The position numbers and the translations under genes are program-made. DNA of 7,984 nt, taken from the IMG/VR virus record IMGVR_UViG_2648501400_000001, one strand, 5' to 3'. Positions 7,199 through 7,984 of the stretch are shown piece after piece. The notes beneath the pieces were generated by a model that had not been told where the DNA came from, searched no databases, and saw only the letters and a program-made list of their open reading frames with translations. Each line of letters begins with the position of its first letter. The first letter of the stretch is position 1. The DNA is from a virus (taxonomy: Duplodnaviria > Heunggongvirae > Uroviricota > Caudoviricetes).

Positions 7199-7594
7199 TC
7201 ACATTTCATAGGTAATGACATAAGTCAGATCGGCTGAACTCCACAGGCCCGCATCATCGTCGCGCCGGTAGTCATAGCCACTGGCCACCATACTGGTGAT
7301 CAAATCTGACAGTGCCGGGATATCGCTCATCACCGGATAAATCCGGGACTCCATCCACGCATCCAGCTCTGAATCCGGCACCTGAGCAGGCAGGAAAACT
7401 TCAATATGCAGCTCCGCCTGCCAGGTATCGCTGTCCAGCTCTTCGCCCGTGTATTCAGCGCCGGTGAGATAAACGGCAACTGCCGGAAAATCCGCCTCAT
7501 CAAAAACAGCGGGGCGACCATCAAAAAGCGTCGCCCCGGTGTCATGCTTCTCCAGTGCATCCAGTACGGCTGCACGGAGTTCAGTATGTTTCAT
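7199..7594 (-). CDS. U: Tail terminator / tail completion protein U (131 aa)
   Basis: ORF track 7199..7594. [131 protein letters not shown] matches lambda gpU as recalled. The start ATG overlaps the Z stop (ATGA). Confidence 0.95.
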
Positions 7595-7893
7595 CGCTTT
7601 ATCGCAATCCTCAGTTGTTGTTTCAGGGCGTATTCCAGTTCTTTCGGCAAACGTTCACGCCGTATCTGTTCAATATTCTGTTTAAACGCCGTGGTCAGCG
7701 GCACCGCCATCGGGATTTTCACCACATCAATGGGGTAACGGTTTTTCCCGGCCACACGCTGCATGACATGCCAGCGACCATTTTTTAATCGCTGGATAAA
7801 TGCCCGCTGATAACGATGCTGACCGGCCCGTAGCGTACTGTTGGGACGACTTCCGGTGATCCGTATGATTAGACTTGAGATAAATGGTAAGCG
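7591..7893 (-). pseudogene. Z: Minor tail protein Z, 3' portion only (about 100 codons of open frame; 5' half absent)
   Basis: Hand translation of the minus frame ending at the TGA at 7593-7591 gives ...[71 protein letters not shown], matching the lambda gpZ C-terminus as recalled. An in-frame TGA at 7896-7894 closes the frame upstream. The first in-frame start candidate is the ATG at 7764, giving at most 57 aa, which is why the ORF track lists nothing here. Lambda gpZ is about 190 aa. Confidence 0.6.
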
Positions 7894-7919
7894 TCAACGG
7901 AGCACCGTATTGACGCTTA
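7888..7919. other. Perfect 10-bp inverted repeat (TAAGCGTCAA ... TTGACGCTTA) with a 12-nt loop at the boundary between the Z remnant and unrelated upstream sequence; possible terminator-like hairpin or recombination junction
   Basis: Read directly from the sequence: 7888-7897 taagcgtcaa, 7910-7919 ttgacgctta. A T-rich tract (TTTATT) follows on the plus strand and ATTTAT on the minus strand. Confidence 0.4.
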
Positions 7920-7984
7920 TTTATTGGTGAGTACTACGTTCCATGGCAGGAGTTCATCAACTCGGTTGGAAGGCCATTCCGGCA
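7917..7984 (-). CDS. 3' end of an unidentified minus-strand ORF (...PEWPSNRVDELLPWNVVLTNK*), not recognisable as a lambda tail or head gene
   Basis: Hand translation: the frame is open from the window edge to the TAA at 7919-7917. Too short to judge whether it is really coding; its stop lies inside the right arm of the hairpin. Confidence 0.25.
   Translation of the reverse strand, partial: PEWPSNRVDELLPWNVVLTNK

Follow-up and report, generated by a model that had tools for sequence, protein, structure and literature searches.

The gene Z of the lambda-type prophage analysed here has very probably been split by a BcepMu-like prophage, the left end of which was then hit by the insertion sequence ISEc23, that is, by two successive transpositions. 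The window, meaning the whole stretch of 7,984 nt under analysis, is the entire draft contig JHSW01000106.1 of the short-read assembly GCA_001266175.1, and since it ends within the multi-copy ISEc23, its right edge is an assembly break and not a biological end. The left edge lies inside J and is possibly also an assembly break. Z looks 5'-truncated and joined to "non-tail" DNA in this contig because the assembly broke 98 nt into the repeated IS; both junctions between Z and the Mu-like prophage, the 6-bp duplication, the terminus of the IS and the head genes are present in the data. The close relatives of the source sequences are all E. coli, and no mention of assembly GCA_001266175.1 was found in the literature. 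The features around the break are given in Table 1.

Table 1. Features at the break in Z and at the right edge of the window (window positions).
Feature	Position	Strand	Remark
3' remnant of Z	7591..7865	-	Z nt 260-534: codons 88-177 and 2 nt of codon 87
Residual 57-aa ORF (MQRVAGKN...IAIKR)	7591..7764	-	Longest ATG/GTG/TTG ORF in the Z frame
TCCGTA, copy of the 6-bp target-site duplication	7860..7865		Also follows the Mu-like right end on JHSW01000066.1
BcepMu-like prophage, left (Mor-proximal) end, terminal 21 nt	7866..7886	+	TGATTAGACTTGAGATAAATG; TG terminus, contains GATAAATG
GATAAATG, 8-bp ISEc23 target	7879..7886		Presumably one copy of the target duplication, the other lying past the contig end
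ISEc23 (IS66 family), terminal 98 nt	7887..7984	-	GTAAGCG terminus at 7887; contig ends within the IS
Perfect 10-bp inverted repeat with 12-nt loop	7888-7897 / 7910-7919		TAAGCGTCAA / TTGACGCTTA; part of the ISEc23 end
Last 22 codons of tnpC and stop (7917-7919)	7917..7984	-	Ends ...ELLPWNVVLTNK; unrelated ORF ...PSNRVDELLPWNVVLTNK

A lambda-type tail module fills the window on the minus strand, comprising part of J, I, a damaged K, L, M, H, T, G, V and U, and its last element there is the Z frame (7591 onwards, minus), which has the translation ...R*RLPFISSLIIRITGSRPNSTLRAGQHRYQRAFIQRLKNGRWHVMQRV...IAIKR* and is closed by the in-frame stop TGA at 7894-7896. The residual 57-aa ORF is an annotated gene in the source assembly and matches PF06763. 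Megablast against complete E. coli genomes and phages, in which the matches were prophages and phage 2B8, together with pairwise alignment showed that the DNA is 100% identical to the intact 534-nt Z from 7591 to 7865/7866 and that the identity is noise beyond this point. The intact allele (534 nt, 177 aa) is present in phage 2B8, E. coli RM14723 and several other E. coli prophages, and in 2B8 and E. coli Z1323PEC0014 the 534-nt Z lies between FII and U with the whole head module upstream. The stop codon of the remnant overlaps the start codon of U. The frame in the window matches the Pfam family Minor_tail_Z (PF06763) with E = 2e-34 and 119.5 bits (curated cut-off 23.9) and covers profile positions 107-190 of 190, the intact relative covering 1-190; full-length coverage of PF06763 (about 177-192 aa) by one ORF between FII and U was not found in the window, which holds the 3' half of Z only. 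An earlier sequence-only reading of this DNA had correctly given the approximate end of the Z homology (roughly 7800-7860), the TGA at 7894-7896, the limit of 57 aa, the ORF end at 7917-7919 and the 10-bp inverted repeat, and the alignment to full-length gpZ that it called for puts the end of the homology at 7865/7866, at codon 87/88. It had also considered that gpZ proteins of about 100 aa might exist; no evidence for a naturally occurring Z of this length was found, and most of the short database entries seen carry the label partial from their source or are disrupted genes. The same 57-aa ORF also arises in a metagenome contig (ENA, L012 1-526), where Z lacks 1 nt of a GGGG run at about Z nt 255-258; this is unrelated to the insertion and reflects either a separate frameshift or a sequencing error.

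The break in Z is not a chance end but the terminus of a mobile element, and the same terminus is met again at several hundred loci elsewhere. When 7862-7891 was the query of a sensitive search, (A)TGATTAGACTTGAGATAAATG was matched in 532 complete E. coli genomes (561 places), 521 of them with at least 99% identity; all 561 places are chromosomal, and each adjoins unrelated host genes among the matches listed. The 21-mer lies exactly at the boundary between host and prophage in all three copies examined, where the flanks diverge just before TG and the truncated host genes are a DUF892 gene, hyfJ/hycH and potG. The prophage at this boundary encodes Mor, gp16, Gam, an AAA+ transposition protein and an rve transposase, after which come genes for lysis, head, contractile tail and a Gin invertase. 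A Mu-like copy that was read fully (L013) is about 37.9 kb long. Its left arm, transcribed towards the end seen in the window, encodes an HTH repressor-like protein, a transposase, an AAA+ protein, Gam, gp16 and Mor; the transposase has 589 aa with an rve domain and matches the PHROG family "transposase" with E = 1e-147, and the AAA+ protein corresponds to "DNA transposition protein". On the right arm are genes for lysis, the head, a contractile tail and tail fibres, and one for a Gin-like recombinase. The arrangement is of the BcepMu type. Among named phages, Escherichia phage PhiKM (PQ738613) is the closest, with 95% identity across 92% of the left arm. What the source genome yielded of the element is its two ends, 21 nt on the left and about 3.5 kb on the right, so that the Rve-type transposase, its ATPase partner and Mor/Gam are described from the intact relatives.

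The three Mu-like copies that are fully bounded have TG...CA ends and 6-bp duplications, namely AACAGA, AGCACA and CCTTTA, each in a different gene, and all four insertions examined (source genome and these three) made 6-bp target duplications. The TG is at 7866-7867 of the window and CA finishes the right end in L077; the same termini are seen in L008/L081, L010/L080 and L013. The target duplication of Mu is 5 bp, unlike the 6 bp of this family, and that of Tn552 is 6-7 bp, which matches it. At both Mu-like ends (L013 437-480 and 38300-38348; L077 10266-10315), nt 1-4 are TGAT and nt 14-21 are GATAAATG, the motif common to both ends of the BcepMu-like prophage, and second, similar motifs follow about 22 nt further inward; these terminal motifs are presumably transposase-binding repeats. 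Relatives of BcepMu have been described to possess an Rve core transposase related to that of Tn552 and 5'-TG...CA-3' termini (PMC2628397). Within the family, the tail-fibre region beside the Gin-like recombinase is rearranged or inverted between copies and has internal repeats (L077 10978-13766 versus L013 34400-37600), which fits an invertible host-range segment, and the source contig ends inside this invertible-type region. In E. coli MS 21-1 (L080 2453-4704), a copy of the same family carries ISEc10 (IS21 family) in its tail-fibre region, a further case of decay by IS in this Mu-like family.

The remaining part of Z is on a second contig of GCA_001266175.1. Along this contig, JHSW01000066.1, come in turn lysis genes, Nu1, A, W, portal (B), protease (C), D, E, FI and FII, then Z nt 1-265 (codons 1-88), the Mu-like right end (...GCGCGGCGCATCA), the gene for the Gin-like recombinase and tail-fibre genes; identity is 98% for its head part against the intact reference prophage and 98% for its Mu-like part against L013. 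The Mu-like right junction reads ...GCGCATCA and then TCCGTA. The duplicated Z nt 260-265 read TACGGA in the sense of Z, and the window keeps Z nt 260-534. Because the same 6 bp flank both junctions, the split is attributed to one transposition into Z. With the first 88 residues of Z as the query, a homology search found a 101-aa protein made up of Z residues 1-88 and MMRRAINALYLVR, the translated Mu-like right end, and JHSW01000066.1 is among the contigs encoding it. A 5-bp duplication of the Mu type with an 88-aa N-terminal fragment was also considered, and the sequence predicted from it is absent from the protein collection; the N-terminal fragment has 101 aa and not 88 aa because the duplication is 6 bp. 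At the left junction, a 99-aa protein (MSFISSLIIRITG...) from another E. coli draft reads through the same boundary without an IS: its SFISSLI is read from the uninterrupted Mu-like left end (...CTG TCA TTT ATC...), and the ...TTA CCA TTT... of the window is derived from the IS. This junction between Z and the Mu-like prophage was not found in the complete RefSeq genomes of E. coli, nor by an exact-pattern scan in GTDB representatives or IMG/VR contigs.

These data bear on two other explanations. In the first, the 5' half of Z and the head genes upstream were deleted or replaced, and foreign DNA now abuts the tail module. It would agree with a window that has nothing upstream of Z codon 88 and with a real deletion of 479 bp in K of the same module, but it is very unlikely, for the same assembly holds Nu1 to FII with Z codons 1-88, ending at the complementary break with the 6-bp duplication, and both break points are the exact TG/CA termini of one phage family. 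The head genes that the sequence-only reading took as replaced or deleted (Nu1, A, W, portal, protease, D, E, FI and FII) are thus all there, on JHSW01000066.1. The deletion in K, which encodes a C40 peptidase, is internal and out of frame relative to the closest intact prophage (L003 7969-8447); it is joined at 1949-1969 of the window (K region about 1834-2000) within a direct repeat, imperfect and about 20 nt long, GCACATCGCC(C/G)GG..., and a microhomology-mediated event is suggested. In the second explanation, the assembler created a chimera by wrongly connecting short repeats, namely the 21 nt of the Mu-like end and the end of the IS, and Z is intact in the genome. A short-read draft, a contig that stops inside a multi-copy IS and a Mu-like segment of just 21 nt speak for such an artefact. 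However, the reciprocal junction and its perfect 6-bp duplication come from a different contig that was assembled independently. Two unrelated Logan assemblies, SRR19671056 and SRR14860202, have the identical right junction, and another E. coli record has the left junction without the IS. Exact transposon termini together with a target duplication would not be reproduced by a chimera, and a mis-assembly is highly improbable.

The DNA beyond the Mu-like end belongs to ISEc23, as 7876-7984 is 100% identical in BLAST to an ISEc23 copy on plasmid pGDE043-2 (NZ_CP099723.1) that is 2532 bp long and has tnpA, tnpB and tnpC. The identification as IS66 was prompted by the ELLPWN motif together with GTAAGCG, and BLAST bore it out; a comparison with the ends of IS1, IS2, IS3, IS5 and others gave nothing. 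The terminus of the IS is set at 7887 because all 54 distinct flanks, drawn from E. coli genomes and IMG/VR contigs, diverge exactly before GTAAGCG, and the terminal repeat pairs with the opposite end in the pGDE043-2 copy. An IS end further out, considered from BLAST hits that run past GTAAGCG (query starts 18-27), was ruled out by the 54 flanks, and these extensions appear to be chance or a weak AT-rich target preference. DNA identical to 7917-7984 is annotated as ISEc23 transposase in the pGDE043-2 copy, where the full protein matches DDE_Tnp_IS66 and DDE_Tnp_IS66_C; from the tnpA-tnpB-tnpC set, the window holds the final 22 codons of tnpC alone, 100% identical to the copy that has all three genes. 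The 10-bp inverted repeat includes both the stop codon of tnpC and the TGA that closes the Z frame. A sequencing error as the origin of this TGA, which had been allowed for beforehand, does not apply. The stop is located in the terminal repeat of ISEc23. As RNA, the repeat at the ISEc23 end would fold into a hairpin of -17.7 kcal/mol (z = -2.9), and its assignment as a canonical terminator was rejected after folding. Intact Mu-like ends read GATAAATG and then ACAGGG. The ISEc23 copy in pGDE043-2 has GATAAATG on both sides, and of the presumed 8-bp target duplication the window shows one side (7879-7886).

An insertion of ISEc23 directly into Z, or a mosaic Z allele in which 7867-7886 is divergent Z, could be imagined for a lambdoid gene, such genes being mosaic, and the 8-bp GATAAATG also occurs inside Z at 7795-7802, but it deserves hardly any credence, given that the 21 nt are an exact prophage terminus in 532 genomes, that no Z homologue continuing through them was found, and that the N-terminal Z fragment joins the other Mu-like end and not an IS. 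The split of Z by the Mu-like prophage with ISEc23 in its left end is preferred to all of these. The junction to non-tail sequence noted in the sequence-only reading is real and consists of the Mu-like end at 7866-7886 followed by ISEc23 at 7887-7984. Of the "insertion or rearrangement in Z" that it offered, the insertion was confirmed, Z being split by the Mu-like prophage with the 6-bp duplication at both junctions, and the nested pair of the Mu-like end and then ISEc23 was missed. The search for IS terminal repeats, target duplications and head genes that it recommended yielded the ISEc23 terminus, TCCGTA and the head module.

Based on the sequence evidence, the following order of events is proposed. 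A BcepMu-like phage with an rve-type DDE transposase and an AAA+ helper would first have integrated in Z between codons 87 and 89, where the DDE transposase would have made 6-bp-staggered cuts in Z and joined the TG/CA ends to them. TCCGTA was thereby duplicated, and the head module with Z codons 1-88 came to lie on one side of a Mu-like insert, with Z codons 88-177 and the tail genes U, V, G, T, H, M, L, K, I and J on the other; the insert might measure about 38 kb, as in the intact relative, plus the 2.5-kb IS. ISEc23 would have come next, entering the Mu-like left end behind its nt 21, at GATAAATG, with tnpC reading towards Z. The Mu-like insertion must be the earlier one because ISEc23 lies inside the Mu-like terminal sequence. 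The left junction without an IS in the other isolate is consistent with this order and suggests that ISEc23 may have arrived later in the lineage of the window. We infer that ISEc23 entered by a simple insertion that duplicated 8 bp, in preference to a rearrangement mediated by the IS; in this layout, the tnpA-side end of the IS would be followed by GATAAATGACAGGGAATAAGTGAGAT, that is, GATAAATG and ACAGGG..., and then by Mor. Z would have been left split and the late operon interrupted between FII/Z' and 'Z-U, and the terminal 21 nt of the Mu-like prophage would have been cut off by the IS from the remainder of its left end.

With its Z in two parts, an interruption in the late operon and an internal deletion in K, the lambdoid prophage should be defective and unable to make functional virions. 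A defective prophage had been supposed from the window before, reasonably in view of the large insertion that splits Z and the 479-bp deletion in K, and as regards function itself we infer it from these lesions. The Mu-like prophage is probably immobilised, because the IS separates the terminal 21 nt from the rest of its left end. Both tnpC and, in the layout of the intact relative, the Mu-like early genes read towards the orphaned Z'-U-V...J tail module, and this module might conceivably be expressed by read-through.

It is doubtful, though conceivable, that the terminal GATAAATG motif of BcepMu-like ends, presumed to be a transposase-binding site, is a hot spot for ISEc23. The 54 distinct ISEc23 sites (L014-L076 IMG/VR contigs, L002-L007) show a weak AT-rich preference over 8 bp, roughly G-A-W-W-A-A-T-N, and GATAAATG fits this consensus at every position. 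In pGDE043-2 (L002 4001-4011 and 6544-6600), ISEc23 lies in a remnant of about 31 nt resembling the Mu-like left end (TGAGATAAATGA-AGGG-AAT-AGTGAGATA), in the same register as in the window. The alignment score of this remnant is 43 versus 15.8 +/- 2.5 for shuffles, in a copy that was found via the likeness of its flank to the query and is therefore a biased sample. The DNA around this ISEc23 copy contains no recognisable phage, about 31 nt of it resembling the Mu-like end. The insertion in the same register could reflect a hot spot or shared ancestry. If the hot spot were true, transposable prophages would be a preferred target of ISEc23, which would disable them by interrupting their termini.

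Nested insertions of mobile elements in prophages are common in E. coli, and the present case is ordinary prophage decay by mobile elements; gpZ, the BcepMu-like phage and ISEc23 are all of known families, and no new biology is implied. Mildly unusual are the presence of a transposable phage in the tail gene of another prophage, the constant 6-bp duplication and the possible ISEc23 hot spot. The case is a clear example of nesting, with a prophage in a prophage and an IS in the inner one, and it is instructive for annotation: an apparent 5' truncation with loss of the head module was in fact a split gene, the halves of which are on two draft contigs, so the lambdoid prophage is interrupted and not truncated. 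Contig breaks induced by repeats can mimic deletions in this way. As a by-product, a BcepMu-like family of E. coli is described that made 6-bp target duplications in 4/4 insertions examined.

Compared with lambda gpZ (PF06763) in its 2B8-type allele, the C-terminal 90 codons in the window are 100% identical in DNA, and the remnant keeps the same place directly upstream of U with the overlap of stop and start, whereas codons 1-87 are on another contig, as in an interrupted gene and not a short natural variant. The end at the right edge agrees with annotated ISEc23 in its terminal 98 nt, in GTAAGCG, in the C-terminus of tnpC with the IS66_C motif and in the AT-rich 8-bp target, and there is no visible difference in the 98 nt within the window. 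With BcepMu-like phages, the element in Z shares the TG terminus, the insertion into unrelated host genes and probably, as judged from intact relatives, the same layout of the left and right arms; it differs from them in that 21 nt of the element alone are in the window, that its target is the tail gene of another prophage, and that its left end is itself interrupted by an IS.
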